From NCBI GenBank assembly GCA_963575745.1, contig CAUYUJ010000092.1, positions 620,001-670,523 on the forward strand: DNA of 50,523 bases. The letters are read 5' to 3'. The position numbers were made by a program, and so were the translations under genes. Below the pieces are notes generated by a model. The model was not told the origin of the DNA, did no database searches, and saw only the letters and a list, made by a program, of their open reading frames with translations. This document shows positions 19,860 through 49,400 of this stretch, in pieces; the first letter of the stretch is position 1; every line of letters begins with the position of its first letter. The stretch comes from Prorocentrum cordatum. Taxonomy: Eukaryota.

Positions 19860-22440
19860 CCGTTGGGAGGTCGGAGTCGGTGGGGTAGGAGCTGGAGTCG
19901 GGGCCAGCGTCGGAGCAGGAATCGGAGCTGGAATGGAGGTGCGACTGCTCGGCACGGGTGGTGGTAGTGGAAGGGGCGCCGCTGGCGTCTGCGCTGGCGT
20001 AGGCGCCGGTGGTGGCGCTGGCGTCGTAGCTGGGGAGTCGGAACTGGGGATAGAAGTGGTGGGTGGCGCACACGTTATCCCATGTGGTGGGATAAGACGC
20101 TGGGAGCAGGGTTCATTCGATCGCGGGTCAAGTGCAGGTCTAGGCGCTGGCATCGACGTCGGGTTAGGCGTTGGCATTGGTGCTGGCGTCGGTGTTGGCG
20201 TCTGTGCTGGTGTAGACGTTGGCGTCGGTGAAGGCATAGGCACAAGCGTGGGTGCTGGTGTCGGTGCTGGCGTCTGCGCTGGTGTAGTCGCCGGTGGCGG
20301 TGCGGGCGTCGGAGCTGGGCGTCGGAGCTAGAGAGTCGGAGCTGGGGAGTCGGAGCTGAAGGTAGAAGTGATGGGTTGCGCACACATTATCCCATGGGGT
20401 GGGATAAGACGCCGGGGGCAGGGTTCATCCGACCGCGGGTCGAATGCACGTCTGGCGGCGGTGCCAGTGTAGGCGTTGGCGTCGGTGAAGGCATATGCAC
20501 AAGCGTGGGTGCTGGTGTCGGTGCTGGCGTCTGCTCTGGCGTAGGCACTGGCGGTGGTGCTGGCGTCGGAGATGGGGAGTCGGAGCTGGGGATAGAAGTG
20601 ATGGGTGGCGCACTCGTTATCCCACGGGGTGGGATGACACCCTGGGAGCAAGGTTTATTCGACCGCGGGTCGAATGCAGGTCGAGGCGTTGGCAATGGTG
20701 TCGGGTTAGGCGTCGGCGTCGGTGCTGGCGTCGGTGCTGGCGTCGGTGCTGGTGTAGGCGTTGGCGTCGGTGAAGGCACATGCACAAGCATGGGTGCTGG
20801 TGTCGGTGCTGGTGTCTGCACTGGCGGAGGCGCCCGCGGTGGTGCTGGCGTCGGAGCTGGACGTCGGAGTTGGGGGGTCGGAGTTGGGGATAGAAGGGGT
20901 GGGTGGCGCACCCATTATCCCACGGGGTGGGATAAGACTCCAGGGGCAGGGTTCATTCGACCGCGGGTCGAATGCAGGTGTAGGCGGCATTGGTGTCCGG
21001 TTCGGCGTCGGCGTAGGGGTTGGTGTCGGTGCTGACGCATGAATCCTCTGGTGCGTTGTCGTCAGATGGCCGGCGTTGGTGCTGGAGTCGGTGCTGACGT
21101 CGGTGCTGGTGTAGGCGCAGGCGTGAGTGCCGGCGTCGCAAGTCCAAGCGCTGGTGTGATGCGGTGCTGGTGTGGTGCTGGTGCTGATGCGGTGCTGGTG
21201 TGGTGCTGGCGTGGGCGTCAACGTCGGTGTCGGCCTTGTTGTTTTGGAGCGGCTTTCCAACATCGGCTTGGTTGTTGGCGTCGGTGCTGGCGTCGGTGCT
21301 GGTGCGGGCGCTGGCGTCGGTGCTGGCGTCGAGGCTGGTGTGGGTGCCGGTGGTGGTGTCGGTGTAGGCGCCGGCGTTGTTGCTGGCGTATGGGCTGACG
21401 TCGGCGTGGGGGTGTTGGTGCAGCTGCAAGTGGTGCTGTCTCGGGGGGGGAGAGTTGTTGGGCGCACGTGTGGTGCTGTGCCTGGCGCCCTCCTGTCTGG
21501 GGGGGGGCAGGATTTGTCCGCCCACGAATTGTGGTGACTGGCGGATAACTGCCCGAGTTTCCGCCCCACCAGCAGGGCGGCCAAGCGAACCCTACTGCGT
21601 GGTGCAAGCTTTGTGGTGCAAGCCATCGTATCCCAGCCGCATGACCGATGGAGTGCCCAGCCGTAAATATGTAACACGCTGCCTGGTATTCATGTGTCTG
21701 GCGTGGGGATGGCGTTTGTGCCGGTGTATGCGCAGGCGTTGGTGCTGGCGTAGGCGCCGGCGTCGGTGCTGGCCTCGGTGCTGGCGTCAATGCCGGTGTC
21801 CGTGCGGCTGTCAGCGATGGCATCGGGGCTGGCGTAGGCGCTGGCTTTGGTGTTGGCGTAGGCGCAGGCGCTGGTGCCTGCGTTGGTGCTGGCGTCGGTA
21901 CTGGCCTCGGTGCAGGCGTCGGTGCCGGCGTCGATGCTGATGCTATCGATGATGTCGGAGCTGACGTAGGCGTTGGGGCTGGTGCTGGCGTAGGTGCATG
22001 TGCTGGCATCGGTGCCAGTGTAAGCGCTGGCGTTGGTGCTGGCGTAATTAGGTGCCGGTGTTGGCGCTGGTGGCAGTGCTGGCGACGGCGCTGGTGTAGG
22101 CGCAGGCGTTGGTGCTAGCGTCGGCGCTGGCGTCGGTGCTGGCGTCGGTGCTGGTCGATGGTGCTGGTGTAAGTGTTGGTTTTGATGTTGGAGTCGGTGA
22201 TAACAACAGTGCTGGTATAGGCGCTGGTGGAGGCGCTGGCGTTGGCGCCGGCGGTGGCGCCGGCGTTGGTGCTGTCGCCGGTGCTGGACGCTGCGCTGCG
22301 ACAGAGGACAGGTCGGAGTGTCGAGTTGGTGGAGTCGGTGGCGGTGGGAGGTCGGATCGCTGAGGTTGCGGAGGCTGGAGGTCGGCTGGTGGAGGTGGCA
22401 GTGCGAACCCCGAGGGCAATTGCTACTGGAAGTGGTACTG
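19860..22440 (-). repeat. Pro/Thr/Ala-coding-like 12-bp repeats (GGTGCTGGCGTC) with four higher-order ~240-310 bp units
   Basis: A conserved ~110-bp block occurs at ~20030, ~20340, ~20575 and ~20875. Reading frame is not maintained between units. Confidence 0.85.
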
Positions 22441-22443
22441 GAA

Positions 22444-24564
22444 TCACGGCACCCGGGGGAGCGGATGGGAGTCGTGCGCAGTCCAGCGCCGGGTAAGGAC
22501 GCGGGTGGAACGGCCGTGGCCTCGAACACCTTCCCGTACCCATTGTGTCATTGCGTCGTAAAGTGCTGCCGTCGGCAGGGGGGTCTGGGCGCGTCGCTGG
22601 TAATTGGTGCACCTGTACGTCGCATAGACCAGAAGGGCGATGGTCGTGAGCATCTCCGTGGTGCTGGCCAAAGGATTTACCAGAAGAAAAGAATGGAGGT
22701 TCACGAACAGGTGCGGGTCGAAGTGCAAGAACTGCGCAGCAAGCCGCTTCACCACCGGGCACTTCGCGTAATGCTCAATCGCGTCCTGTGTGTGGGGCGC
22801 TCTGCACAGGAGGCATGGTCCACCATGTTGTTGAAAACGACGGGCCGTCGTCCATCGATTCCACATCGTGCTGAAGACCGCCGACTGTACCCTTGGAGCC
22901 ACCAACTTGTTCAACTGCTTAAGGTGATGGAGAGCTGCCCGGCCATGCCAATTCTCTGTGCGCTGCCGGACTGGAAACAAGCTAGTGATGTGAGCGTGGT
23001 CGGGCATGTTGAGGTACCAGCGTCGGTATTTGTGCCGGATGCGGTGTTCGGCTGGCGGGGCGCGCGCCTGTAAGAGTCGAGCATGCACGGTGGCTTGGAA
23101 ACGAGCGCGGATGCGGCCCCATTCTTTCACGGAGTAAGGAGTGGGACGCGTCGGTGCCATGGAGCGGTATAGCTCGGTGGGTGTCCCCAGAAGCGTCGTC
23201 ATGTCCGACAATGTGGTGTCCAAGCGTAGGTGGTAGGAGTGCTGGAACCATTGATCCCACATTGCTTTTTCCTGCAGGCGGTCGGTGGTGCCCAAAAGTG
23301 ATCTGAGGAGCCGGGTGCGTCGGTTGAATGCGCCATTGTAGTTTGTGTTGTTGGGGGCGTGCGGGGGAAGGTCGGCAGGGTTAGCGGGGCGCGCGCCGTC
23401 GCCCGGGAGGTGGAAGTCCAAGGGAGTGCCTGGTTCCGCGGGGTGGTCGCCGCAGGCTGTGTCCCACAATCGTACTCGTAGTTGTGCTGCTTGGGCGGCA
23501 AGCCGGAGACTCCGGAAAGCGCTGGGAAAATTGTACGAATGTTGTAGCCACCATAAATCCTCTGGCGTGGCCCAATTACCGGGGCCGGGAGCGGCTCGTC
23601 GTAGACATTGTAACTCCACGGTGAGAACGTCATCCGTCGGGTCGCTGAGCTGTGCCTCGAAGGTCAACACCGAGATCCCAAAGGTATTGTATGCGAGCGC
23701 AGCGCAATGAAGTCCCAGCGGGTGGCCTGCCCATAAAGATGCGCGTTGTTTGAACTTTGCCTGCGGGTCCTTCCAGAGCAGGTCGCGGCTTCCCGGCCCA
23801 ACGTAGAATCCTAGATACTTCCCTGCAGGGGCCAACTGCGTGGTTGACCAGCTCGGAACAAGGGTGTCGAGGTGAGTCCTCACCGTCAAGAGCGGGGATG
23901 CGAACAGTGGAATGATGACCGTCTTCTGCAGATTAAGCCTCAGCCCAGAGATTGCTGCGAAGTCGTCGAAGAGGGCTGCCAGTCGGGGAGCATCCTCCCA
24001 CAAGTTTGCGGAAACAACGGCGGTGTCGTCGGCGTACGCGCGTGCCAAGATGCCCGGACAAGTTGCCTGGATCTTGTCTAGTAATAGTTCCGCGCAGATG
24101 GCGTACAGTAGAGGGGACAATGGGCATCCTTGCCGGACGCCTGCCGTCAGGGGGAAGCCTGGGAGTGTCTGTCCCTGGCTCACAATTTGGCATCGGTTGT
24201 TGTCGTACAGGTGTTTCACAAAGCTCCGGGCCGACTCCGGTAATTCCAGGTGGCGCAGCACGTCGTGCAAATACTCCTGCGAGAGCGACGGGAACGCGGA
24301 CGCGAAGTCAAAGAGTATGATGGCGCCGGAGTCCGATTGGAGTGCGGTGGCCATGCTGGCAAAGTCGACGTCGAGCACGTTCTTCAAAAGTGATCGGCGT
24401 CGAAGAAAGCCTTGCTGCGGTGGGCCGACCCACGCGTTAATGACCGGTTCCCAGCGCAATCGGGCTGCATTCGCAATGATCCTGTTGTCTGTGTTCACGA
24501 TAGACAACGGACGTGTGCTGTCCGCCGTGTAAACGTCTCCATGGGTTGGGTCGCAAGTCAATTT
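22444..24564 (-). CDS. ORF2 3' part: reverse transcriptase + C-terminal CCHC
   Basis: RPLSIVNTD, QQGFLRRRS, ILFDFASAFPSL, GVRQGCPLSPLLY, AYADD, SGLRLNLQKT, KYLGF; CLLC...EHYAKC. Confidence 0.95.
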   Translation of the reverse strand, partial: KLTCDPTHGDVYTADSTRPLSIVNTDNRIIANAARLRWEPVINAWVGPPQQGFLRRRSLLKNVLDVDFASMATALQSDSGAIILFDFASAFPSLSQEYLHDVLRHLELPESARSFVKHLYDNNRCQIVSQGQTLPGFPLTAGVRQGCPLSPLLYAICAELLLDKIQATCPGILARAYADDTAVVSANLWEDAPRLAALFDDFAAISGLRLNLQKTVIIPLFASPLLTVRTHLDTLVPSWSTTQLAPAGKYLGFYVGPGSRDLLWKDPQAKFKQRASLWAGHPLGLHCAALAYNTFGISVLTFEAQLSDPTDDVLTVELQCLRRAAPGPGNWATPEDLWWLQHSYNFPSAFRSLRLAAQAAQLRVRLWDTACGDHPAEPGTPLDFHLPGDGARPANPADLPPHAPNNTNYNGAFNRRTRLLRSLLGTTDRLQEKAMWDQWFQHSYHLRLDTTLSDMTTLLGTPTELYRSMAPTRPTPYSVKEWGRIRARFQATVHARLLQARAPPAEHRIRHKYRRWYLNMPDHAHITSLFPVRQRTENWHGRAALHHLKQLNKLVAPRVQSAVFSTMWNRWTTARRFQQHGGPCLLCRAPHTQDAIEHYAKCPVVKRLAAQFLHFDPHLFVNLHSFLLVNPLASTTEMLTTIALLVYATYRCTNYQRRAQTPLPTAALYDAMTQWVREGVRGHGRSTRVLTRRWTAHDSHPLPRVP

Positions 24565-24639
24565 TTCCCCACATCCTGAGTGGGGTTCTTGTTTTCCCAG
24601 AACACCCTCTCCTTCTCCTCCTCCTCCCGCGTCCTTCTC

Positions 24640-24832
24640 CTAAACCATACCATACCAAGCCATACCATACCAATACCTTACTATACCAATACCATACCAA
24701 GCCATACCAAGCCATACCATATCAATACCATACCATACCATACCAATACCATACCATACCATACCATACCAAACCAATAACATCCCAAGCCATACCAAGC
24801 CATACCATACCAAGACCATACCATACCAATAC
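24640..24832 (+). repeat. (ATACC)n pentanucleotide microsatellite
   Basis: Direct reading. Confidence 0.9.
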
Positions 24833-24840
24833 CCCTCCCA

Positions 24841-25983
24841 CCCCTCCCACCCCTCCAGGGAGGCCCCGCCTGAGCGAGGAGGGTATTCGCATCACCTGTT
24901 ATTTCTCAGGTTTCGTGCCCCTCCCACCCCTCCAGGGAGGCCCCGCCTGAGCGAGGAGGGTATTCGCATCACCTGTTATTTCTCAGGTTTCGTGCCCCTC
25001 CCACCCTTCCAGGGAGGCCCCGCCTGAGCGAGGAGGGTATTCGCATCACCTGCTATTTATCAGGTTTCGTGCCCCTCCCACCCCTCCAGGGAGGCCCCGC
25101 CTGAGCGAGGAGGGTATTCGAACACAGTGTTATTTATCAGGTTTCGTGCCCCTCCCACCCCTCCAGGGAGGCCCCGCCTGAGCGAGGAGGGTATTCGCAT
25201 CACAGTGTTATTTCTCAGGTTTCGTGCCCCTCCCACCCCTCCAGGGAGGCCCCGCCTGAGCGAGGAGGGTATTCGCATCACCTGTTATTTCTCAGGTTTC
25301 GTGCCCCTCCCACCCCTCCAGGGAGGCACCGCCTGAGCGAGGAGGGTATTCGCATCACCTGTTATTTATCAGGTTTCGTGCCCCTCCCACCCCTCCAGGG
25401 AGGCCCCGCCTGAGCGAGGAGGGTATTCGCATCACCTGTTATTTCTCAGGTTTCGTGCCCCTCCACCCCTCCAGGGAGGCCCCGCCTGAGCGAGGAGGGT
25501 ATTCGCATCACCTGTTATTTCTCAGGTTTCGTGCCCCTCCCACCCCTCCATGGAGGCCCCTTCGCCCTTCCTGAGCGAGGATGGTCTTCGCATCGACCTT
25601 TTATTTATCAGTTTCGTGCCCTCCCACCCCTCCAGGGAGGTCCTCCTGCCTGAGCGAGAGGGTATTCGCATCCACCTGTTATTTATCAGGATATCGTGCC
25701 GCAATACCCACCCCATCCAGGAGGCCCCCGCCTGAGCGAGGAGGGTATTCGCATCACATGTTATTTCTCAGGTTTCGTGCCCCTCCCACCCCTCCAGGGA
25801 GGCCCCGCCTGAGCGAGGACGCTATTCGAACACAGTGTTATTTATCAGATTTCCTGCCCCTCCCACCCTCCAGGGAGGCCCCGTCTGAGCGAGGAGGGTA
25901 TTCGCGAACAGTGCTATTTATCAGGTTCCGTGCCCGTCCCACCCCACCAGGGAAGCCCCGCATGAGCGAGGAGGGTATTCGCA
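24841..25983 (+). repeat. 77-bp tandem satellite, ~15 copies
   Basis: Unit CCCCTCCCACCCCTCCAGGGAGGCCCCGCCTGAGCGAGGAGGGTATTCGCATCACCTGTTATTTCTCAGGTTTCGTG; more diverged toward the right end. Confidence 0.95.
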
Positions 25984-26103
25984 AACCATGTGATAGAAAA
26001 GGATGGAGAGGGCGAGGGCAGGTCGGCAATTTCTCTACAAAATGTTGCTTGATCCCGCTAGCCCAAAAACATCATTATGTGGGGAACTCCGTTAGCATAA
26101 TTT

Positions 26104-29100
26104 CTTGCCCAGGCACACGAGGGTGCCCAAGTTGAAGTCGTGGCCGTCGGGGTCGCTGCCGTCGTTCAGCTCGTGGAGGGAGTTCTCCCCGGAGGTGCTC
26201 TGGAGAGCGTCGGCGGCTTCCCAAAGGGCCCTGATGGCGAGCTGGCCGCTCTGCCGCCAAGCGATATACGGAATACCGTCAGGGCCTGGCATGCTGTTGC
26301 CCGAATGTTTCACCGCTGACTCCACATCTGCCTCTCGTAATGCCCATTTGTCCGGAGATATGTCTAAGGGTGGGCGGGAGTGGTGGCGACGCGGGCGGCC
26401 GGGTCGTTGTCTGGTGGGATTGGAGGTCGGCTGTCGTTGTGGGGGGGGTGCGGGGTGTTGCTGTACGTGGTCTGCGGCGTTAGGGTGGCTCGGGGCGGCG
26501 TCTGACGTAGGCGCCGGGGGTCGGGTCGGTAGGAACTGCGGGAGGGATGCGAGCCAGCGCTCCAAGATGTGAGGGTTGATCGGTTGTCGTGTGAAGACTC
26601 GGCTCCAATGCTTCCCCAGCTCCTGTGCGATGTCGTGGGGCGTGTGTGCTAGATTTCCGTCTGGGGTCTGAATAGCGCCGATGGCGGTGTTGCAGCCTGG
26701 TTGCAAGCGTCGGAGCTTCGTCAGAATATGAGTTTTGCGTTGCTGGTAGTCCCCCGAGGTGATGTCGGCCTCCTGCCGCTGTAATGCAACAAGGTCTGTC
26801 GTGACCGCGTTGTGGGCGAGGTCAACCGCATGTTGTCGGACTGCTTGAAGCAGCCGTGAGAGACGAGCATTCGGGTCGGCGCCGGGGGCCATCGTAGCAA
26901 GGTGGGGGTAGGCAGCCAAGCAGCGATGCATCGTTGGTACGGATATGCGCTCTGCTGCACGGATGTATGCCATTGTCCAGCCTAAATGGTCGTGTGGGTC
27001 ATCGGAGGGGACGTCAAGTCCTTCTTGATGCATCTTCGTCGCCACTCGTGCCATGCACTGCTTCAGAATCCTCAGTCGGCGGAGAGGGTTCTGGGGGTTG
27101 CGGTCGTCGCGCAGTGCTTCGTTGTAGGCGAGGGTCAATCGACGGTTCCAGTCTGGGTGGCGCAAGGGTCCAGTGGGGAAGTTGCCTCCTGCACCTTGGG
27201 ATCGGCTTTTGGTGAGACGGGAAAAAGATAGGGGTCTATGCTGCGAGAGTGGTGTGTGCGGGAGCGCGGTTGCGGAGTACTGGCGGTCCAGCTGGTCGGA
27301 ACCGTGGTGGTTGGAGTAGACACGGTCGATGCGGGAGAGGGCGCGTCCGGACTCGCAAGTAGGGAGTGGTTGGAATAGCTCGTGGAAGCCGTGCCGGCGC
27401 GCGAGGTGACTGTCCCAGTCGTCCGCCTCTCTGTGGTCCGCGGCGCCCGTCCATTGGCCAGAGCGTTTGCACCACCTGTCCTCCGCTGCCGTCACGAAAT
27501 TCCAGTCCCCCATCAGGAGGGTGAGCGTGGAGCCCGCGTCGGCCACCTGGTCAGCGAGGTCCTGGATAAGTTGTCGTCGAGCTGCTGCTTCGTCGTGGCC
27601 GGCGGGGAAATACGCCGCGACTATGTCCAACGCGCCGTTCGGTCCACGTAATGACAATACTGCCAAACGTCCAGGAGAAATTTCCACCCAATCTTCGTCC
27701 CGTACCGGGTTGAACGAGCTGAGGAAGTGATTCGTCAGGATGAGGCCGATGCCCGCGGTCCGTCGTGTGCTGTGGTGCGACCAAAAAATGCGCGTATGTG
27801 CTGGTAGTGTGGATGCGGTCACGTGGCCGAGCGTGCTGTGAGTTTCGCCCAGGCCGACGAAATCATGTTTCTGTAGCAGATTCCATGCGTGATATTGCTT
27901 GTCCTGTTGGGCACGAGGGGCGGCTGCGAAGAGGGCCTGAGCGTTCCAATAGGCGCCTCGGTAGGCCCCTGCGTAAGGGAAGGCGGCTGGTGGAAGTGCT
28001 GGAGGGGGTGGCGTAGGGGGGAGATCGAGAGGGGCGGCGTCGGTTCGCGGTCGTTTCGTGGAGCGTGCCGGAGTCGTGTCGGCAATGATGGTCTGGCGTT
28101 GACGTCGTGTCCTGCTGTGGCGTTCTGGGTCTGTGCTGGGTCGGTCGGCCGGCTGGTCAGTGATCGGTGTGTGGTGTCTCGGGCTCTCTGTTGTCGGGTC
28201 GATCGGCTGGGGGGCATCGGTCGCGTGGTCGTGCGGGGCTTGTTGGAGTCGAGGTCGTTTTGCAAGATTTTGAAGAGTCGTCGGGTTCTCTGGGGCACTG
28301 TAGTTTCGGTGCCGGGTCGTCCTATCCTGGTGGTCCGGGGGCGTGTCTTGGGATGTCGCCATTGGGGTAGTGGTCGGCGTGTGGGATCCGATGCTGCTGG
28401 AGGCCGTGCCGGGCCGAGTAGGGAGTCCACGGGGAGGGCCAGGGGGTGGGGGAGGCTCGGGCGACGGCGTTAGGGGAGGAGGGGTGTAGTGCGGGGGATG
28501 GGGAATAGTAGAGTCGTTGTGAGTAGGACGGGAAGGCCGCTGGAGGTCGATAGTCGGAGGTGGGGGTGCAAGGTCGGATGCTGGAGGTTGGAGGTCGCAT
28601 CGCTGAGCTGTGGGAGGCTGGAGGTCGAGAGGTGGAGGTGGAGGTGGAAGGCCGGGTGCAGGAAGCCTGGAGTCGGAGTGGTGAGCGGTTGGGCGCTGGT
28701 AGTCGCCAGGTTGAGGTGGGGTTGGAGAGTCGTGGGCTGAAGCGTGGCGGTCGGAGCGTCGCGCTGCTGGCCGCTGGAAGTCGATAGATGGAGGCGGAAG
28801 TGGGAAGTCAGACGCCGGAGGCTGGAGGTGGCATCGCTGAGCAGTGGGACGCTCGAAGTCGGTTGGTGGAGGTGGAGGTGGAGGTGGAAAGCTGGATGCA
28901 GGAAGTCTGGAGTCGGAGTGGTGAGCTGTGGGGCGCTGGAAGTCGACAGGTGGAGGTGGGGTTCGAGAGTCTGGTGCTGGAGTGTGGCGGTCGGAGTGTC
29001 GAGCTGCTGGCCGCTGGAAGTCGATAGGTGGAGGTGGAGATGGAAGGTCAGACGTTGGACGCTGGAGGTCGCATCGCTGAGCAGTGGGACGCTGGAAGTC

Positions 29101-29718
29101 GAGAAGAGGAGGTGGAGGTGGAATTGCGGGTGCTGGGAGTTGGAAGGCGGTAGGTGGAGGTGGAGGTGGAGGTGGAGGGTGGGAGGGGTCATGCACATGC
29201 GATGGGAGAATCGCACGAATACAGATACGCAGCAGCGGCCACGTCAAGTCCCGAGTGCATCGTCCCTGGCCGCCTCGAGGGGGGGCGCCGGGGACGGAGC
29301 GGCTGTGTAGGGTGGGATTGGGGGTGCCTGGGGAGCGTCGTGAAAAAGGTTCTCGATCTCGACCAAGCACGGCATGCCGTCGATCTCCATGCAAGTGTTG
29401 TGAGCGTGGTGGTAGAGTACGTTGAGGTCGTCGACGGTGCTGCACTGGACCGTGAGGCGGTGCGCGTTCTCGCTGCGCCAGCGGTGTGGGAGGAGAGGCC
29501 CCCCCTCTTGCTGCATCTGCCAGGGCGTGCCGGTGAGCGCAGAGATCCGCGTCATGAGGCTGCCTGGCAGGGAGTCCGGGTGGCCCGAAGGCGCGTCGGA
29601 AATAACGATGGCAGTGGTCAGGGAGATGCGGCGTGCCTCTGACTGCGTGGCGGGCGCGGGAGATGCTCGTGCCACTGCCCGTCGCCGTGTTGTTGGGAGG
29701 GCCTGCGGCTTCGCCCAC
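26104..29718 (-). CDS. ORF2 5' part: Pro-rich repeat leader, APE-type endonuclease (~27963-27230), linker and start of RT; true start uncertain
   Basis: [55 protein letters not shown]; then [10 protein letters not shown]. Confidence 0.9.
28530..29180 (-). repeat. ~70-80 bp tandem repeats at the ORF1/ORF2 junction
   Basis: Peptide PPPP.DFQRPTA....D recurs about eight times. Confidence 0.85.
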
Positions 29719-31979
29719 GTACGACCGCCCAAGATCGATGGGCGATGCCGCACCCGCGTGATAGCGTCGAGTGGTGTGACTGTACCCTGGTCAGAGAGTT
29801 CATGGATCCAGTGCCCCGCGGACCACGCCGTCCTGATCAATGCCCGGCGTGACGAGACGAGCACCACCTCGTTCGTCCAGTCCCGCATGGCCTCAATCGC
29901 TGTCGGTGAACCCATATCTACCACCATGGCCGTGCGGTCGGTAAACAGCGCGCGTCGTCCGATGAGCGTCCTGTGCAACTCGTCCTGGTTCTTGAGGTGG
30001 TCTACGTAGAGGTGCAGGTCCAAGTCCGTGACGCGGGTCTCCTCGAAGAATCCCACGAAGTACAGCCTTTGTGCCGGGCCCTTGCTGCCGAGGCTGCGCC
30101 GTGGGCCGTCCCAGCGAATCAAGCCAGGAAGAGACAGCTTCTTGAGCGCGCCGTGGACGCCGAGTTCCTCCGCGCCGTAGAAATCCACGATGACTGCCGG
30201 GCCCGCGCTTTCCTCCAGCAGGGTCGGCCGCCAATTGAGTGTGACCGGAGGCGAGGTGGTGCCACAAGTCGACAGACGAAAAACCGCGATCGCTTTCACG
30301 TGGTGAAGCGGACCAGTCTGTCCCGGAAAGACACACCTGACTGGCTGGCGTAAGTATTCCACGCAGGATAAGATCGGTTTCCATTCCGTCTCCATCAAAA
30401 GGAAAAAAAAAAAGAGGGACCAGCAGAAGAAATGAAAAAAGGATATAAAAAAACACAAAAAAAAATAAATAATAAAAATAAAAGTATTAAAACACAAAAC
30501 ACGATTGAAGAGAGAAATATAAACAAAAAAAAACAAAGAAACCAAAAAAAAGAACAAAGAAAAGCTATTTCCCCATAGGTCCTGGATTTCCGTGTGCGTG
30601 CTGCAGCCTGGGTAGACGTCGTGCGGGACCAGAAGGTGCAGAGTGGTCGTGGCGGCAGCTGTGGCCGCAAAGGTTTTGAAAGCACGGGCAAGTCGTGCCA
30701 TGGTCTCCGAATCCATCGGTGCCCACATGTAGAGGTCCTTGCCTGTCATCTCGTGCAGGGCCCCGCGGATGGTCGCAGCGCTCTTGGTGAGAGCCTCGTA
30801 CTGCTGCCGACCAGTGAGCGGCGGGAGTGCCAGAGGAAAATGTGTAAAGTCGATTTCCTGTAGATTGGACGTGTGGAGGAGGAGGGTTGTGGGTCTCGCC
30901 GCGGTGGTCGCCCGGTCGTGCAAGTACTTGAGTAGAGAGGTGCCGGCTTCAAGCCAGCGCGGGCTCCGGGTGGTCGTCCATTTGCGCTTCTCCCGGAGGA
31001 TGTGGGGGAGATCGTTAATGCAGTGCTTGCTTGCGGCGTCGAGTCGGTCCAAGAAGTCCTTGGGCTCTGTTGATTCCTGGAGTCTGCGCCCTGGGTGTTG
31101 GCAGACTGACGTCAGGGTATGGGCCAAGGCCACTCGTCGCATGATCATTTCCGTCGTGGGGGGTGGGCCTTCGTACTTTGGGATGCCCACAAGTGCCCAT
31201 GGATCCGCGGAACTGGGGTCGTAGGCGAGGGACCGGAGGACTGGGATGAGAGATGGCCATGTGCGCAGGGCGTCCAATGTGATCATGGGTCGGTTGTCTG
31301 AAGGCTCGCGGGTGTCCGTGACCGCGCTGATGTAGTCTCCGTGCACCAAGACCTCTTGCTCGATCAGTTCGGCGAGCAGCTCGTCCATGCGTCCCTCCTT
31401 GTCCGGAGCCTCTGGTTGCGCAACGGGTGCGTCGTGGAGTCGGTGAACCTGCGAGGCTTGGGGAGTCAGGGCGGGGAGTCCGGGAGGTGCCGCACGGGAC
31501 GTTGGCGTCGCAGCCCCTCGCGGTGAAGCAGTGCCCTCCTCATGGCCAGGCGTTGGTGGCCCTGGGGCCTGAAACTGCCGTTCCTGGTGGCAGGATGGGC
31601 ATCGGCCCGCGCCCGTTGTCACAGTTCCGAAGAGCGGGCAAGCACCGTGCCGGCAAGAGTGTAACCCCGTGAACAGGGTTTCTGGCCCACCACCGCGGAG
31701 GCGGAGCACCAGGTGCATCGTGGCGTGCTTCTGGATGTTGTAGTCCGTAAGCGTGCGACTGTCCTCCAGCTGCTTGCTGCCGTAAATCAGGCGTTGCTGG
31801 ACAGGGGAGATGTCCTCGGAGTCTTGGATGTTCGCTTTAACGTCCTCGATCGTGGAATTGGCCGCCACGTTGAGCACGATGGTCTTCCCCGTCAGCGTCT
31901 TGACAAAGACCTGCATTCCCCCACGGGGCTTCCTGAGAGTCGTCGTACCCCGTGTGGTGACGACTAACACGAACGCCAC
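29244..31979 (-). CDS. LINE ORF1: ubiquitin + C4 zinc-finger-like + possible J-like domain + possible RRM-like C-terminal region
   Basis: 911-aa open frame directly upstream of, and overlapping, the ORF2 frame; ubiquitin followed by CRHGAC...CPSC. Confidence 0.8.
31689..31916 (-). other. Complete 76-aa ubiquitin moiety within ORF1
   Basis: [12 protein letters not shown]...HLVLRLRGG; 55/76 identical to canonical ubiquitin by manual comparison. L8, I44, V70, K48, K63 and di-Gly are retained. Confidence 0.95.
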
Positions 31980-33478
31980 TTCCGAGACGCAGCACGGAGG
32001 CCAGCCCGCGCGACGTCGACCTCAGAATCCCCCAGTGTGACGTTCGCCCGCTCGAGCTGGCCTCCGTGCTGCCGTTCCTCGGAGTGGCGTCGTGTCGTCG
32101 GCGCGCGCGCCGAAGACACGAACCCACTCCGAGACGCACACGAGGCCAGCTCCGACGCGACGTCCACCACACGGGGCTTCCTGAGAGTCGTCGTACCCCG
32201 TGTGGTGACGTCGCCGTCGGAGCTGGCCTCCGTGCTGCGTCTCGGAGTGGCGTTCGTGTCGTCGGGGGTGCCGACGTGGATGTGGGCGTCCAGGCTGTCA
32301 TGGATGCCTGCGTCGGTGCGAGTGTCAGCCGTGATGATCGCAGAGGTGCACGTGGCTGGTGGCACGGTTTCCGTCAGGGCGGGCGTCCCGCGTCCTGCAG
32401 TGTCGTGGGTACCAGCTCTGGTGATGCTGGCGTCGGTGATGCTGACGTGGTCGTGGGCGCGGTCGTCGTGGGCGTCGTCGCCGTCATTGTGAGTGTTGTC
32501 GCGCACGTAATCTTGCTTGTCGTTGTGGTCGCGGATGTCGGGTCCAAAGGGGCTATTCCGGCCGACCGCCTTCCTTTCTGCTTCCTCCGCCTCCGTCTCC
32601 AACTCCCTGGCGGCTGCGTCCGCGCGGAGCAGAAGTCGTGAGCGCCGTACCTCATGGGTTTCGATCCGCCTGCGCCAGTGCTCTGCCAGTTGCGCCAGCA
32701 AAGCCTGGTTGGTGGCAAGCTGGTGGTGGTGTTGGTCGCTGTATAAGCAGTCGGGCTCCAGGATGAGCATGACGGTCTTCCCCGTGAGTGTCTTCACAAA
32801 CATCTGCATACCCCTGCGGCATTGTGTGCTGGTGGTGCTGCGTCCCGCATCGGTGACCGTGCTGCCGTGGGTGCTGGGGCGGGTGCCGGCGCCCATTGTG
32901 TCGACTTCGGGCCGTCGGCCTCGTGCCGTCCAGCGCTTGCGGGATCTTCCGACCCGCCGTGCACGATGGACAAAATGTTCCTGCCTAACTCGAGGTCCGG
33001 ATGCATCTGTAATGCCCGTGTCCGTGGAGACCACCAGCCAGAACATCATCAGAAGAAGGTGGCCGGTGCTGTGGGGATTCGCGCCGAAGTCGTTGCTCGC
33101 GTCGATGCTGTGGGAGCTGGCGGCGTCGTCGCAGGCGGCGGCCTGAGGAGTCGGACTGTGGAGTTGGCCTGTGGGGCGTGGAAGGGCTGCTCGTGAGAAC
33201 GGCCTGTGAAGTCTGATTATCGAGTCGGGCTGCCGTGGAGTCGGACTGTGGGGTCGGACTGCGGTGCGGTCAGCCTGAAGAGTCGAACTGCTGTGAAGTC
33301 GGACATTGGCGTCGGACTGCTGGAGTCGAGTTGTGGAATCGGACTGTGAGGGCAGGCAGTGGAGTCGTACAGAGGAGTCGGACTGCTGGGCTGGCGTCAG
33401 TGCTGACTGCGGTACTGGCATTGGGACGGGCGTCGGTGCTGGAGTCGGGACTGGCGGAATCGCGCTGGCGTCAGTCAC
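31964..33478 (-). CDS. Upstream ORF, probably the N-terminal part of ORF1: PT repeats, truncated ubiquitin N-terminus, coiled coil
   Basis: [15 protein letters not shown] starts at 32809. Shares the duplicated peptide [12 protein letters not shown] with ORF1. Confidence 0.6.
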
Positions 33479-34914
33479 TGACTGCGTACTGGCATTGGGA
33501 CGGGCGTCGGTGCTGGAGTCGGGACTGGCGGAATCGCGCCCTCACTGTTGGGGGTCGTAAATGTGTGCAGTCTGCGCACGTTGAGTGCAGGTAGGTGGTC
33601 TGTATCCGTACGTTGGTGGTCGGAGTAAATGGCACTCGGCGAGGTGGAGGTGGAGGTGGAGAAGGGAAGTTTCTCTGGGGGGGTGGAAGGAGGAGAAGGG
33701 TTTTGGAGAAGCCAAGCTGTCGACCACTGTGCAGAACCGATAGCCGTGTTTAGCTGTGTCGACCACTGAGCAGTCGGACTGTTGAGCTGGGCTGTGGGTC
33801 GTGGAAAGGCTGCACGTAGAGACGGTCTGTGGAGTCGGGCTGTCAAGTCGGACTGATGTGCAGTCGGACTGTGGAGTCGGACTGCTGTGGAGTCGTCTGT
33901 GGATCTGGACTGTTGTGTAGACGGGCTGGTGCTGGCGTCGCTGACGTCGATGCTGTCGTAGGTGACGGCATCGGTGCTGGCGTCGATGCCGTGGCAACTG
34001 GTGGAGGTGCAGGCGTCAGTGCTGGCGACAGAGCCGTGGAGCCTAGAGCTTGGAGCTGGCGCTGGGCCAATGTGCACGGAGTGGGGGGCGGGCCAGGGCA
34101 CTGCGTGAGCGCCGACTCGTCGAGACGGCAGTCATCAACGAGTAGCCCCATCCAGAGGATGGGGAGGAGGAGGAGGAGGAGGAGGAGGAGGAGGAGGAGG
34201 AGGAGGAGGAGGAGGAGGAGGAGGAGGAGGAGGAGGAGGAGGAAGAGGAGGAGGAGGAGGAGGAGGAGGAGGAAATGAGGAGGGCGATGGCTGGGGAGCG
34301 CCTGGGGGGCCCCGAGGCCGCGTCAGAGATGTGGGGCGCGGGTTGCACGCCAGCGTCAGTGGCGGGGGGCATGGTTGTCGAGCGCGCCTTCTGGCAGAAG
34401 CGCCGGGCGTCAACGGCACTCGCGGGTGAGCAGGCCGAGCTGTTGGTCCGCGTCGGCCACGTTCTGGCGGGCTGCGGACCACCATGGACCATGCCACGTT
34501 CTGGCGGGCTGCTGGCTGCCTGCGGCGGCCCAGGACGAGCTCCTCTATTGAATGCGCGATGCTCCGTCGTCGCGGTATCGACACCACCTGCCACACGGGT
34601 AACAGCATGCTTCGCACGGGCAACCAGAGAAGCCAGACGCATGTGGCATCTGTTCTCCGGGGAGTGGCACGGGGCAGGGCAAGGGGGCGATGGGGGAGGG
34701 TGACAGGGAGGACGGGGGCAATAGGGGGTGGAGAAGCAGGGGGAGGGCGATGCGGGGGGGAGGGTGGGGGGAACCGGATGGACAAGGCGAGCAGGGGGGG
34801 CAGAAGGGAAAGGCTGATGTGGTGACACGCACTTGGGGAGGCACGGGTGGGAGGCGAAATGGGGGAGGGGAGGGAGCGAGGGAGGGAGGGGGAGAAAACG
34901 GCGGAGAGGAGGAG

Positions 34915-43437: not shown

Positions 43438-43459
43438 TCCGTAGCCACTTTGGCTCAAG
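43438..43459 (+). other. Full-length dinoflagellate spliced leader at the 5' end of a LINE
   Basis: TCCGTAGCCACTTTGGCTCAAG, 21/22 match to DinoSL, immediately followed by ATG. Confidence 0.95.
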
Positions 43460-46400
43460 ATGCCTAGTTCCGCAGGGGAGCAAGTGGATACCGCTAGTCC
43501 GCGGCCAGTGCCAGGGCTCTCTAGCCCGACAGTTTTGTTCAACGCTCCGTGTGCCTCCTGCTGCCCGCAGGTGAGCTTTCTCTGTTCCTCAGCTCGTCCA
43601 TGGCGCCTCCGCAGCAGCGCAGCGGCTACGTCAAGTGCTACTCCTGCTCGTACGCCTGGAACTGGAAGACCAAGCAGACGTGCTACTGGTGTGGCAAAGC
43701 TTTGGCGCCGTGGACAGATGCCCCGCCTCCGGTGCAAGGTGCTTGGGCGGCCCGTGTCTCAGCCGCAGCCCAGGCCGAGGCCAAGTGCACCCAGCAGTCC
43801 AGCCCCGAGGGAGGTTGGGAGCCGTGGTCATCATGGCCCAAGTCCCGCCGCCGCCGTGGCAAGGGCAACGACAAGGACCAAGACGACGACTGGTGGGCCA
43901 GCAAGAACGACACCCCCAAGGCTCGCCCCGCCGAGGACATCTTGGCGGAGCTCCAGGCGATCGCCCCCCACATCGACAAGGCAGCCATTGACGGCATCAG
44001 GTCGCAGATTCCGCCGCCCCGGCCGCAGAAGCCAGCCGACCTCAACGACATCTACAGCCGCGCCCAGGCTACGGAGCGCCGCTGCAAGAACAACCTGGAG
44101 AGGCTGCTGGAGAGCGAGCAGAAGGCGCTCAGCTGGTACACAGAGCGCAAGCAGGCGTCGGAGGAGGCCGCCTACAAGTTGGCTGAAGCCCAGGCGGAGG
44201 CCCAAGCGGCTCTCGACGCACTCCCAGCCGCCCGCAAGGGCGGCACAGCTACTTCAACGCCGTCGCAGCAGAACCCGACCTTCAACCTCACCAGCCTCCT
44301 CGAGGACGGCGACATCTCCATCGAAGCGGGTGCAGCGTTCGATCTCCAAGGCCTCGACATCGACGACAGCGACCGCCAGGCATGGGAATCCCTGCAACAG
44401 CGCTTTGCCACGGAGCTCAAGGCCAAGGTCACTGAGCTCTTCGGCAACACCGCCAGCCGCATCAGCCAGCTCCGAGCAGAGGCCAGCACCATGCGCACGC
44501 GCTTCGCCTCCAAGCGGCAGCGCGCTGACGAGGATGGGCACGCCAGAGAGGGAGGTGGATCACCGCCCGCCGCCTCGGCTGCAGCAGGCGAACCCCCAGC
44601 GGCAGCCGCAGCGGATGCTGAGGGCACTGCGCCCTCTCCGCCAGCGGCGCCAAGCGATGAGCCTCCCGCACCTGCTGCTGGCGCTTCTTCTGACGGCGGC
44701 TACGCCACACAGCCTGTGCCTGCACTCAACAAGGACCCCGACCTCGAAGACAAGGCACAGAAGATGCTCAGCCAGATGCGCAAGCCCACTGCTGCCGCCG
44801 CCGCTGGACCGCAGCAGCCTCTTTAGCCGACTACAACCCGACCCTGGGCGGAATGGTGAGACGGGACGCCTACCGTCAGAGACCACGATCTACGACAACC
44901 CACCGATCATCAATACAATGGACGCAGTCCTCGACCCGTTCGACGAGCTGGCCGAGTTGGACGCCCACATCGATTTCGCAGTTTCCGAGCAGTGCGCTAC
45001 CGCCCCGCCCGAGACGCTGTCCTCGGTAGGGGGCGATGAGGCGGCGCAGACCGTCGACCCCGTGGTATGGGACCCAGGGCAGCCGCAGCGTGCTACGCGG
45101 TCCGACCCTGATGCCGCTCCGCCCGAGACGCTGTCCTCGGTAGGGAGCGATGAGACGGCACAAGCTGTCGACGTGCATGTGGTACAGGAACCAGGGGAGC
45201 CTTCGCCAAAGGCAAACCCTGATGCCGCCCCGCCCAAGACGCAGTCCTTGGTAGGGGGTGATGAGATGGCGAAAGCTGTCGACACGCCCGCAGGGAAAGG
45301 GCCATGGAAGCCCAGCAGCCCGAGAGCCGACCCTAGTCCCGCCTACCAAGACGAAGGCCATACGAAGCCCCCGCTGTCAGACCATTCCCTGTTCTTCTCC
45401 AACATTACTCAATGGGGACCACAGTCGGAGAAATGGTTGGCAGGACCAGGCAAGCAATATCAGATGGTAGCATTAGTTGAAACACACATCTCGCCTGGAA
45501 AAGCGCCGCCCCTCTACGACAAGCTAGCAGCGGATGGTTGGAGAATATCATCGACTACGGCCACTCCTACCAATAGATCAGACGGCGGCAACACGGGTGG
45601 CGAGATCATCTTATCCAGGTACCATGTCCAGGCCACCACGTTCAACCACCTCCGTGACCTTGCCATCTCCCAGCGTAGGCCTGACCCGTTCCTCGGCTTC
45701 ACGCCCATGGTATGGCACAGACGTTCTGGCAACTTGGTTGTTATTGCCGCGTATCTGGAACCCCACAGGCAGATCGAGGGTGCAGTACACGATAAGCTAC
45801 TTTCGCTGGGAGCGTTCGTTACTATGCTCACAGACCCTTGGAACATCCTGGCCGATTGGAACATGACACCTGAGCAGCTTGCAGCGACAGAGTGGCTCGC
45901 CAAATGGAATGCTACCATCGTGCGAGCACCTGGATCCGCCACTTGCGACAAGGGCCAGGGACTCACGATTGATTTCGCATTGGTCAAGACTGGCATCGAG
46001 CACACGATCTCCATTCGCCAGTGCCCCACAGTACCCTGGGCCACCCACGTTGGCCTTGAAGTTCGAGCAGGCAGTGCAGACCCCTGGTGGTATCAGTCGA
46101 TCGATGCCCCCAAGTCCTTCCCCATAGTGGACAGACCCAGGATTCCGCCAGACCCCAACAGCAAGACCGCCATCAAGAAACGTAAAACAGCTGAAGCTCG
46201 AGCAGCACGTCTCCGTGATCTACCTCCTGAACTCCAACAAGCAGCAGCACAGCTTCAGCCACAAGACGAGCCCGCAGCACAGGAACCTATCCCCTATGCC
46301 ATCCCGATGGACTTGTGGGAAAAACAATGGCAGGAAGCGGTACCCACACGTTGTAAGCAGCCACACGCGCACTTCGTGTGCAGACACTGGGTGCACGACG

Positions 46401-49400
46401 CCGACGTCCTCAACCTCAAGTACGCCAAATGGGTCACGGCGCTCGAGAACACCATGATCAGCCACCACCAGATTGACCCGAAGGAAGCTGCAGCATACAC
46501 TGGCCGAGCTCAGGGCTACCAGTTATCTTGGAAGAAGACAGCTGCTGCCCCAGGCCGCGTACGCGTACGCGACCCACATTCGGAATGGTGGGCAATTACG
46601 CTCACCCTCATCAAGCGCTACGCCGCGCTTCACGACAAGCCCAAGCACACAGCGCTTATGCAGCAGCAGGCCACCATCATCCAGCAGCGCGCGGACCACT
46701 TCAACACTCACATGCACGACCTTCAGTTCGAGAAGGATGAGGACACCATCTTCCGCTGGTTTGCGCTCGTCTGGGCCCCGCACCTGGACAAGGATGACAC
46801 CGACGACTTGGTCACCATTACCGCTACCTGGGCCTCCAGAGCCCTCCCGGCCGCCCTCGCCAAGTCCAAGAGGGCCTACGGGGCTTGGCTCGCCCAGCAA
46901 TGGAAGCACCGCCCTGGAGTACTACACGCCCATGTCAAGCCAGCACCCGCACGTCACATCGAGGCCTACGCGGCCAACCTGACCATCGCTGACCCCACCG
47001 TCATCATGGACAACAAGAAGCAACAATGGCAGCAAGTATGGCAAGCCACCGAGACCTCCGACGACATCCTCCAGGCCCTGTCAAAGGCCAAGGCAGCAGC
47101 TGCTCATCAACCGCTCGAGCCCATCACAGCCGAGACCGTACACCGCATTCACGGCCGCATGCCACCCAGTAAAGCACGCGGAGTTGACGCCCTAGGACCT
47201 CGCGACCTCCATCGATTACCAGAACCAGCAGTCGAAGCTTATGCAGATATCCTCAACTCAGTGGAGCAAGCAGGCATCTGGCCACTACAAATTTCAGGCA
47301 CCATTGCAGCTCTCGCCGCCAAGAAGTCTGGAGGCGACAGGGTCCTCGGCATGCTCCCTCATATGGCCAGACTCTGGTCTCGCATTAGATCTACCGCATC
47401 GGCAGCCTGGACGCAAGGTCTGGACGACTTTTGGACTACAGCCATCAAAGGCCCTTCAGCTCTCCAAGCCGCCCTACATAGGGCCTTGTTAGACGAGACA
47501 GCCTCAGCACTTGGCATACAGTCGGCCACCTTGCTATTAGACATCCAGAAGTTCTACGACAATATCAAGCTCGCCAACCTCATCATGGTCGGCCTCAACT
47601 GCGGCTTTCCTCCCATCATTCTATTATTGGAGGTGCAGCTATACCTGGCGCCCAGATTCTTGCGCAGTCGGCAATGGGTGAGTATGCCTATCTTCGCCTC
47701 CAAAGGCATCATTGCAGGCTCCCCTCACGGCACCACCCTGGCACGACTTATCTTGCTACCAATTCTTCGACAAGCCCGAGCTCAGGCAGAGCTTGCCCAG
47801 ATGTGGACCTTCGTCGACGACGCTGTTCTTCGAGTCGAAGGAGTCCTACGTGCTTTACAGAAGCACCTCCCCCGTGCCGCCAGGACGCTCTGCGACGGAT
47901 TAAAGGAGTTCGAGCTGCCTATCTCAGACAAGACCGTCCTCATTGGCTCCACTCCCAAGGTCCGCCACTCGCTAGCCAAGAAGATGCGACAGTACGACAT
48001 CCCAGTTACTGCGATCTCCACGGCCGTCGACCTTGGAGTTGACGCGGCCGCGGCTACTCGACGTGTACAAGCCAAAGCCAGGAAGCGACAGATCTCAGCC
48101 ACAGCCAGGTTTCGCAAGATACACCGACTACGGAGCACTGCACAGCAGGCCCGAATCTCAGCTGGACTGTGGCGCACTGGTGCTCTCCCAGAAGGAGTAT
48201 TCGGTCATCAGGTTCGCGGCCTCGCTCGGCACGCTCTACTACGCTGGCGGCGTCAGGCCGCCATTGCAGCCACGGGCGCTGCCGCAGGCCGATGCCTCAC
48301 CTCCCTCCTCGGCGCCACTTTTGACGGCATGGACCCAGGAGTTGCCCTAAGGATCGAGCTCATCGAGGCTTGGCTTCAGCACTGGATACGCCACCCGAGC
48401 ACGCACGCCAGGATCATCAGAGCCTGGCCAAGGATCAAGACCACCTTGCTCGCCGCTGGCCCCAAGCTGTGGTGTAAGGTCAAGGGCCCCACAGGCGCGG
48501 CCATCGCGACCCTGCTGGAGGCTAGTTGGGAGCCGACCTCAGCTACCAAGTGGAGGCGTACGAAGGGCGGCTACATCGAGGAGTGGAACCTCCCCCCTGC
48601 CGACGACCCCGACCTCCTCGACGCCGACATTCACACAGTATTGCAGGACCTCAGCGAGGATTTACACAGGCTCCTCTGGACGCAGGCCGCTACGCATGCC
48701 CATGGAGACACGCTGGCTGGAGGCGCAGACATGGTCACTATCCGCATTGAACAAAGGAGGTTCCTCGCAAACGGCGACTTCAGCGACTGGGCCCTCAACA
48801 ACGCCATCATCAGCGGAGGACAATGGACCAGAGACCGCCTCCACAACGCCGGCTACCAGATCGACAGGAACTGCGACCGCTGCAGCGCTGGAGTTCCTGA
48901 AACCTGGTTTCACCGAATGTGGCAGCGCGAGGCGAACATTGGACCCGAGTTTGAGGCCAGCGACAAGCTACTGCCGCGAGCCTTGGCGGGGGCCGACGCC
49001 GACCCCGCCTTGCGGCTCCGTGGCATTCCCTCTGTTGCTCTCACTACGCCCACGCTCGAGCCATTGACTGGGAGGGACGGGTGGGGGTTTGTTGGTGCGG
49101 TGCGGGAGGGTTTGCCGTCCTGGGAAGGTGCTCGTAACGCAGAGGGTGAATTGTTTCTTTTTGGTGACGGGTCTGGCGGTGCCTTTTCTGACGACGTCAG
49201 GCGACGTCGCGTCGGATCTGGCCTCGCGGCCCTCCGTTGGAACCCTCCCTCGGCCTCCTGGACCCTCCACGCGGGCCTCCTTGCCCCCCTCCCAGGCCCC
49301 CGCCAGACCGTCCCAAGAGGAGAATTATATGCGTTTTGCCTGGCACTCGAGACGTGCCATCAGGATTTCACGTTTGTTACCGATCACCTAGCCTTGCAGC

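Follow-up and report, generated by a model that had tools for sequence, protein, structure and literature searches.

A diverged ubiquitin at the head of a dinoflagellate LINE ORF1, a candidate cleavage signal for host deubiquitinases

A LINE with a ubiquitin at the N-terminus of ORF1

We analyzed a retrotransposon in a 50,523-nucleotide stretch of DNA from Prorocentrum cordatum (hereafter the window; positions are counted from its first letter). Reading the letters of the window as stop-to-stop open reading frames (ORFs) revealed a two-ORF long interspersed nuclear element (LINE) of a dinoflagellate, belonging to the apurinic endonuclease (APE) type, in which an ORF2 with APE and reverse transcriptase (RT) lies behind ORF1. 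All ORFs of the element are on the minus strand, as are the features given below, apart from tandem repeats and wherever another strand is stated. The reading frame that we take as ORF1, ORF B (29244..32021; 925 codons from stop to stop), opens with a full-length, diverged ubiquitin that is in frame with the protein behind it.

The ubiquitin spans 76 codons (31689..31916; MQVF...LRLRGG), from a Met codon at 31916-31914 to the Gly76 codon at 31691-31689, and is followed by Gly and Pro. In a Pfam scan, PF00240 covered residues 38-109 of ORF B (E 5.7e-22), and 55 of the 76 residues aligned identically with canonical ubiquitin. Both results bear out a preliminary description of this DNA, which had reported a full ubiquitin with this identity, ending in LRLRGG and then G and preceded by LRKPRGG, much like a polyubiquitin junction. 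The description had also listed the L8/I44/V70 patch, K48, K63 and the di-Gly as spared by divergence, and the window copy indeed retains L8, I44, H68, V70, K6, K11, K27, K48, K63, R42, R72, R74 and G75-G76; K29 and K33 are missing. The PF00240 domain and the complete LRLRGG tail together place the sequence in the ubiquitin family. The near-identity and head-to-tail repeats of genuine cellular polyubiquitin are absent, the element holding one full unit and a 20-codon fragment in another frame. The arrangement is that of a ubiquitin fusion: the ubiquitin stands in frame before a partner, its GG is complete and the next residue is not Pro. It had been described as lying inside an ORF1 polyprotein. 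This holds as far as the shared frame is concerned, but not for the position, since the 35 codons that precede the ubiquitin in ORF B contain no Met and the ubiquitin is thus the N-terminal end and not the middle of an uninterrupted polyprotein. The G+C content of its third codon positions (GC3) is 0.84, compared with 0.62-0.76 across the remaining element, which is compatible with a highly expressed host gene as its source.

Behind Gly76, ORF B continues with a Gly-Pro junction and a Cys knuckle (31581..31688; C-x4-C-x12-C-x2-C, ending ...GRCPSCH) that weakly resembles an A20 zinc finger, and then with a Pro-rich spacer containing a PPGL motif (31389..31580). The remainder is a core of two conserved blocks, about 280 and 350 residues long. 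Block 1 (30570..31388) begins at Met212, and block 2 with the C-terminus (29244..30398) ends in the stop codon at 29244-29246. The two blocks are separated by a T-rich, Phe-rich in-frame insert (30399..30569) that puts 57 codons in place of 2, with a GC3 of 0.29. We considered this insert as an intron and rejected it: it offers no usable AG acceptor, and use of its sole AG would put the downstream codons out of frame.

A large ORF1 family with variable N-terminal modules

We collected relatives of ORF B with HMMER, searching 1.84 billion representative proteins exhaustively. For the post-ubiquitin region, 496 representatives passed E<=1e-3, of which 266 also passed E<=1e-10 and 76 passed E<=1e-30; these proteins mostly have about 650-700 residues and share the two core blocks. 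The resulting family HMM matched ORF B at residues 173-485 (E 2.4e-91) and 542-900 (E 8.8e-127). The closest relative, P0001, is 86% identical over the core; its first residue is equivalent to Met212 of ORF B, and it lacks the T-rich insert. No exact match of four window ORFs was present in the protein collection, and no second copy of the ORF1 core was found in the window. A metagenome scan for the family returned a single locus, L001, of the ubiquitin-less P0002 type, and scans of viral and prokaryote-genome contigs returned nothing.

The core has no counterpart in Pfam. No Pfam family matched the 813 residues that follow the ubiquitin in ORF B, nor the core in the 152 proteins scanned (150 listed family representatives together with P0001 and P0002) or in 68 members at E<=1. 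Two of the 152 proteins carried a ubiquitin, one an OTU domain with a methylase and one a weak unrelated match; the other 148 gave nothing. The family profile had no sequence relative in the PDB, and for the core we obtained sub-threshold leads of the RRM type only (0.80-0.85, residues 330-710 of P0002), with no usable match for P0001.

The N-terminal regions of the family are varied. Among 56 representatives that reach the start of the core with at least 20 residues upstream, 54 begin with Met; P[PA]GL motifs occur in 26, GL[ST][QH] motifs in 18, the Cys knuckle in nine and ubiquitin in three. The knuckle motif of the window is also found in P0072 and P0076. In the most elaborate member, P0057 (2031 residues), two domains stand N-terminal to the core, a cysteine protease of the OTU type (E 8.1e-15) and a DNA methylase of the C5 type (E 1.2e-21); the cluster of P0057 also contains P0273, P0275 and P0276. 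The C5 methylase family PF00145 was absent from ORF A, the reading frame upstream of the ubiquitin, and from ORF B. The search thus exposes a large unannotated family of dinoflagellate ORF1 proteins whose N-terminal modules (ubiquitin, OTU with methylase, or Cys knuckle) vary.

Recurrence of the ubiquitin-ORF1 fusion

The ubiquitin is not confined to the window copy, as the preliminary description had considered it might be. Three strongly diverged members of the family carry it as well. P0037 has a ubiquitin at residues 14-90 (Pfam E 3.8e-19), P0053 has three ubiquitin stretches (Pfam E 8.7e-49), and P0109 has the C-terminal half of one, detected by a more sensitive local search (E 9.5e-5 and 5.8e-6). 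The names of P0037 and P0053 assign both to Prorocentrum cordatum. In addition, two contigs cross the junction between ubiquitin and linker. X2 record 14 extends over 31522-31880, is ungapped and differs at 28 positions (92% identical), and X3 record 21 extends over 31627-31962, with two gaps and 44 differences; the contigs come from short-read metagenome data of two other studies.

When 59 core sequences were placed on a quick maximum-likelihood tree, the ubiquitin-bearing rows were scattered over at least three separate, well-supported clades. The window groups with P0001 in a clade of seven rows and P0053 with P0083, and a clade of nine rows holds P0037 with P0128 as well as P0109 with P0054 and P0118. 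The ubiquitin and knuckle of the window and P0037 agree far better than the cores of the two proteins. Their ubiquitins are identical at 58 of 76 residues, the junction and knuckle linker at 28 of 36 and the spacer at 30 of 81, and the two core blocks at 62 of 235 and 72 of 249. The ubiquitins share the derived residues V14, N16, A18, A19, N20, S21, S33, S53, H64, A65 and M67, and both proteins have the junction sequence LRGGGPE(T/S)L. These comparisons indicate that ubiquitin and knuckle form a module that belongs to the mobile unit and is either far better conserved than the core or exchanged between lineages. Two further searches were made with these parts. A word-index search with ubiquitin and linker gave 120 listed proteins, dominated by polyubiquitins and none of them with the core, and a search with the linker alone among proteins of 508-1619 residues found P0037 only.

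Could the link between ubiquitin and ORF1 be an artifact of assembly or gene modeling? The neighborhood is repeat-rich and palindromic, and P0037 and P0053 are automatic gene models. Nevertheless, the fusion in the window is one uninterrupted ORF, the junction sequence recurs in P0037, and the same junction appears in the short-read contigs of the two other studies. We therefore regard a chimera as extremely improbable. Taken together, the evidence makes it highly probable that a family of LINE ORF1s passes the ubiquitin on as an accessory module, and that the fusion is not a chance chimera.

ORF2 and the assignment of ORF B to a LINE

Downstream of ORF1, the element encodes the enzymes of an APE-type LINE in two pieces. 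ORF C (26092..29790; 1232 codons) carries the APE in its second half, and the first part of ORF2 (26101..28362) contains it at about 27307-27948 (PF03372, E 7.9e-7; 29.5 bits, curated cut-off 24.5). ORF D (22444..24639; 731 codons) carries the RT, and the second part of ORF2 (22444..24564, stop included) comprises the RT at about 23908-24522 (RVT_1, E 3.7e-25) and a C-terminal region. Among solved structures, the RT matched human L1 ORF2p (E 3.4e-18) ahead of R2 (E 6.2e-12); as L1 and R2 are the only such elements in that library, the preference for L1 cannot separate L1/Tx1 from other APE clades and does not establish the L1/Tx1-like label of the preliminary description.

The two parts of ORF2 are separated by 1536 nt of satellite (24565..26100), called as a tandem repeat and made up of a 5-nt ACCAT run and 14.7 copies of a 77-nt unit. 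One contig from run X1 and one from X3 connect 24564 directly to 26101, without these 1536 nt, and by codon arithmetic this join preserves the frame from ORF C into ORF D, which puts APE and RT in one ORF. In intact relatives, ORF2 would accordingly be a single frame that begins at the Met at 28362 and comprises about 1460 codons. The satellite units reach very high depth in all four runs whose contigs were aligned to 22000-34500. An intron was again considered and rejected, as the skipped part begins with TT and ends with AA, and the joined form occurs in runs guessed to be DNA, a type that is not on record. Between the stop of ORF1 and the first Met of ORF2 (28362) lies a 78/240-nt tandem repeat (28535..29123), and the whole spacer of about 880 nt has no stop in the ORF2 frame, where it reads as Pro-rich.

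The window copy is damaged: the satellite splits ORF2, the T-rich insert interrupts ORF1 and a palindrome lies upstream of the ubiquitin. Both flanks of the element consist of similar GC-rich arrays of 12/36-nt microsatellites (22000-22440 and 33390-34040), which on the minus strand encode Pro-Thr-Pro-Ala. In a contig from X1, 22152 is joined to 33391, with a shorter side of only 21 letters; this join might mark the insertion of the element into an array, or might be cross-matching between repeats.

The link between ORF1 and ORF2 is drawn from the window itself, from a parallel in the literature and from contigs of X1, X3 and X6 for both parts. No single contig from another run was listed that bridges ORF1 and ORF2, that reaches from the ubiquitin to ORF2 or that covers the whole element, and RT and APE are absent from all 152 family proteins scanned. 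One could thus suppose that ORF B is a ubiquitin fusion from a family of host genes and that the APE-RT ORF is a chance neighbor. We consider this very unlikely. ORF B and ORF2 share a strand and stand in the expected order and spacing; together with the layout of P0057, which joins the core to OTU and a DNA methylase much as the published SymbioLINE-Dnmt elements do in their ORF1s, this identifies ORF B as a LINE ORF1. The family is, moreover, very large and intronless in appearance, and the junk insertions in the window copy are typical of a dead transposon copy.

Conservation of the ubiquitin tail and predicted cleavage

If the ubiquitin is an inherited part of ORF1, its pattern of conservation may indicate what it does. 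Six element-borne ubiquitin C-termini could be compared: those of the window and P0037, three in P0053 and one in P0109. R42, L73, G75 and G76 are kept in all six and R74 in five, whereas K48, K63 and R72 are each kept in three. The residue after the GG is Gly in five of the six, and four have Gly-Pro. An invariant tail combined with variable K48, K63 and R72 fits a cleavage signal better than a ubiquitin that builds chains and is conjugated. Deubiquitinases cut ubiquitin fused to any residue except Pro, and with GG followed by Gly-Pro, cleavage of the element's fusion by host deubiquitinases is plausible. Some ubiquitin-less relatives start right at the knuckle (P0076 begins MPCQH), so that a cut after Gly76 would give ORF1p a similar N-terminus.

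These observations suggest the following scenario. A host polyubiquitin unit would have been captured at the 5' end of an ORF1 and become a heritable module in a minority of the family's lineages, giving the order ubiquitin with LRGG tail, Gly-Pro, Cys knuckle, PPGL spacer and two-block core. Translation would yield a ubiquitin-ORF1p precursor, which host deubiquitinases would cut after Gly76, as they do in natural ubiquitin-fusion precursors. The cut would free an ORF1p with a Gly-Pro N-terminus just before the knuckle, about where the ubiquitin-less relatives start. Cleavage might bring a benefit, for example in yield, in folding or through an N-terminus that is defined. That the ubiquitin is a captured, heritable module which serves in cis as a cleavage signal for host deubiquitinases is, as a whole, the reading towards which the balance tips slightly. 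If host deubiquitinases do cut the fusion, the retrotransposon borrows the cell's pathway for ubiquitin precursors to mature its RNA-binding protein.

Two alternatives accept that the module is real and dispute its role. In the first, the ubiquitin is retained uncleaved, as an N-terminal ubiquitin-like domain of ORF1p that provides a handle for the proteasome, shuttle factors or ubiquitin-binding proteins, and that might also contact the adjacent knuckle. The window copy keeps fold-relevant residues in addition to the L8/I44/V70 patch, and A20 zinc finger 4 is known to bind ubiquitin. The knuckle scored best, weakly, to A20 zinc fingers in two libraries: its best Pfam match was zf-A20 (E 0.22; 11.9 bits, cut-off 21.6), and the top two PDB matches of a four-sequence knuckle profile were A20 zinc fingers (E 0.26 and 0.36). 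The ubiquitin of P0037, furthermore, has no Met of its own (it starts LQLFLK) and is preceded by in-frame residues, which makes it internal there. The A20 finger has the pattern C-x2-4-C-x11-C-x2-C, to be compared with C-x4-C-x12-C-x2-C in the knuckle. However, none of the A20 scores is significant, and the likeness is therefore a lead only. Ubiquitin-like domains that remain attached usually lose the Gly-Gly tail. Here the tail residues L73 and G75-G76 are the invariant ones, while position 44 of the patch varies (I, V, F, I, I, L), as do K48 and K63. We consequently judge an uncleaved domain to be fairly unlikely.

In the second alternative, the ubiquitin is a harmless passenger, captured by template switching onto abundant polyubiquitin mRNA and slowly decaying since. 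Amino-acid divergence of 28%, a truncated second copy in the window, degenerate copies in P0109 and in the stretches of P0053 (55-69% identity to canonical ubiquitin), and the lack of ubiquitin in most family members would all agree with decay, as would a nucleotide likeness of at least 85% to host polyubiquitin contigs despite many amino-acid changes. A decaying passenger would nonetheless have to account for a frame that is unbroken in elements that fall in separate clades and agree in only 26-29% of their core residues, for a tail that is selectively invariant, and for the 92%-identical metagenome copy that crosses the junction without gaps. We regard this explanation as distinctly unlikely.

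The proposed role as a cleavage signal also faces difficulties of its own. The sequence of P0001, the nearest relative of ORF B, begins at the internal Met and includes no ubiquitin, and ubiquitin is found in only the three of 56 representatives noted above. P0002-type members truly lack it: in locus L001, an in-frame stop precedes the Met by 42 codons. The window copy is disrupted and therefore cannot itself be autonomous. Its ubiquitin has departed by 28% from a sequence that elsewhere hardly varies, with K29 and K33 gone, and the discordance between module and core could mean that modules are swapped and not that they are constrained. Contigs from X6 that resemble host polyubiquitin align to the ubiquitin at a nucleotide identity of at least 85%; in one of them, RLRGG codons directly precede an ATG, a genuine polyubiquitin junction, and X6 depth on the ubiquitin is very high. 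Such nucleotide identity, when 18 of the first 63 codons specify another amino acid, leaves few silent differences, so that constraint since the capture may have been relaxed or changed, although the strong codon bias indicated by a GC3 of 0.84 could hide silent divergence. Finally, among the listed runs with these contigs, none is on record as RNA, a type that for X6 is a guess.

A broader proposal takes in the OTU-bearing lineages as well. Ubiquitin and deubiquitinase chemistry may be a processing system for ORF1 that exists in two interchangeable forms, with the ubiquitin and knuckle module swapped between lineages. In one form, an embedded ubiquitin, single or multiple, would be cut by host deubiquitinases at GG|GP; in the other, lineages would use an OTU protease of their own, acting at an LRGG site before the core. 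P0057 has such a sequence, LPNLRGG|AVP, about 50 residues ahead of the core (position 1349, with the core at 1403), seen in this one cluster, and we offer it as a suggestion for the OTU target. We hold the two-form proposal only tentatively and think it rather doubtful. If true, it would describe the first retrotransposon known to depend on ubiquitin-directed cleavage.

Relation to known systems

The closest known system is SymbioLINE-Dnmt of the Symbiodiniaceae, which is the same kind of element, with the same core family and another captured domain. In these LINEs, a DNA methylase in ORF1 lies upstream of an ORF2 with APE and RT (de Mendoza et al. 2018, PMC5890265). Like the element in the window, they are dinoflagellate LINEs in which a host- or foreign-derived domain has entered ORF1 and the APE and RT ORF2 follows downstream. 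P0057 provides the bridge, since it combines a C5 methylase with the ORF1 core of the window, and its layout matches that of the published elements. The ORF1 of the window differs in having ubiquitin and no methylase. Neither "ubiquitin" nor "OTU" occurs in the main text of PMC5890265 or in those of its supplements that are held as text. The two words are also missing from a 2026 preprint about methyltransferases of retrotransposons and from a review of dinoflagellate genomics.

Natural ubiquitin precursors (polyubiquitin and the eL40 and eS31 fusions) share with the element an N-terminal ubiquitin, a GG tail and an attached partner, and PDB entries of ubiquitin-fusion precursors were among the top matches of the window ubiquitin. 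The element's ubiquitin, unlike theirs, is 72% identical to the canonical sequence, has no head-to-tail repeat and is joined to a transposon protein. A viral parallel exists in the pestiviruses, whose ubiquitin fusion is cut by cellular hydrolases. In cytopathogenic strains such as those of bovine viral diarrhea virus (BVDV), one or two copies of host ubiquitin sequence have been inserted by recombination, in events that occurred independently and repeatedly (PMC13517609). As in the window, the ubiquitin was captured in frame, directly before a protein that, in the virus, needs a free N-terminus. The pestivirus insertions are sporadic and sit in the polyprotein of an RNA virus, whereas the window holds a genomic retrotransposon whose ORF1 carries a diverged ubiquitin inherited across lineages.

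Separation of an N-terminal piece without an element-encoded protease also has a precedent among LINEs, namely the 2A-like peptides near the N-terminus of APE-type non-LTR (long terminal repeat) retrotransposons (PMC3708506, PMC3894237). The 2A peptides act by ribosome skipping at DxExNPG|P, a motif that the window lacks, whereas separation through the proposed ubiquitin signal would be post-translational. The word "ubiquitin" does not occur in PMC3894237. If cut, the fusion would be a protease-free counterpart of both the LINE 2A peptides and the pestivirus ubiquitin insertions.

Modularity of ORF1 has been described in the Jockey superfamily, where PHD and esterase domains are scattered over lineages and give evidence for domain shuffling (Metcalfe & Casane 2014, PMC4120745). 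The scattered placement of ubiquitin and the discordance between module and core resemble that pattern. That study distinguishes five ORF1 types (RRM with CCHC; coiled coil with RRM and CTD; PHD; esterase; and unclassified), with no ubiquitin among them, and in Pfam the window core matches none of the named domains. The preliminary description had the impression that such an ORF1 architecture was undescribed. In agreement, we found no description of ubiquitin in the ORF1 of a LINE or other non-LTR element in the searchable full-text literature, a body that does not extend to subscription journals and Repbase reports. The known acquisitions of LINE ORF1s include PHD, esterase and the dinoflagellate DNA methylases, and a captured ubiquitin is new to the literature searched. 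Retroposition has shaped the very large genomes of dinoflagellates.

Sequence upstream of the ubiquitin and elsewhere in the window

Upstream of the ubiquitin lies ORF A (31964..33541; 525 codons), in a frame that differs from that of ORF B. It contains the truncated ubiquitin start that had been noticed earlier, which we located at 32750..32809 (ubiquitin HMM, E 4.6e-5), 893 nt upstream of the full copy. A 67-nt stretch is common to the truncated and full ubiquitins at 79% identity (repeat family D15). Apart from this fragment, ORF A has no relatives in the ORF1 core family.

Two copies of a 44-nt direct repeat (family D16) are found here, one adjoining the ATG of the ubiquitin (31919..31962) and one within ORF A (32167..32210). 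The copies are 98% identical, with a spacing of 248 nt, and bound a palindromic stretch of 331 nt (31900-32230) that forms three long, near-perfect hairpins with a minimum free energy of -215.5 kcal/mol (z -11.8; none of 100 shuffles was equally stable). Both copies are in codon phase 2 and read alike in ORF A and ORF B, so that deletion of one 248-nt period would join the two ORFs in frame. This agreement in phase could be accidental, as would be expected one time in three; it is also consistent with an ancestral ORF1 that was longer and contained at least two ubiquitins.

The remainder of the window contains further traces of retroelements. Between 8000 and 14000, G+C content is 0.44-0.46, compared with about 0.6 elsewhere, GC skew is strongly negative, and the long ORFs have no Pfam match. 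We looked for a spliced-leader relic near the ubiquitin and found none; both relics of the window lie elsewhere. One is a 21-mer at 4157-4177 on the minus strand with two mismatches, followed after about 730 nt by a diverged RT fragment (1351-3426, minus strand; RVT_1, E 1.2e-9; 24-30% identity to ORF D). The other, at 43439-43459 on the plus strand, has one mismatch, with none expected in 100 shuffles, and coincides with the exact start of a 2289-codon ORF at 43445-50314 on the plus strand (RVT_1, E 5.3e-8). This ORF looks like a single-ORF retroelement copied from trans-spliced RNA.

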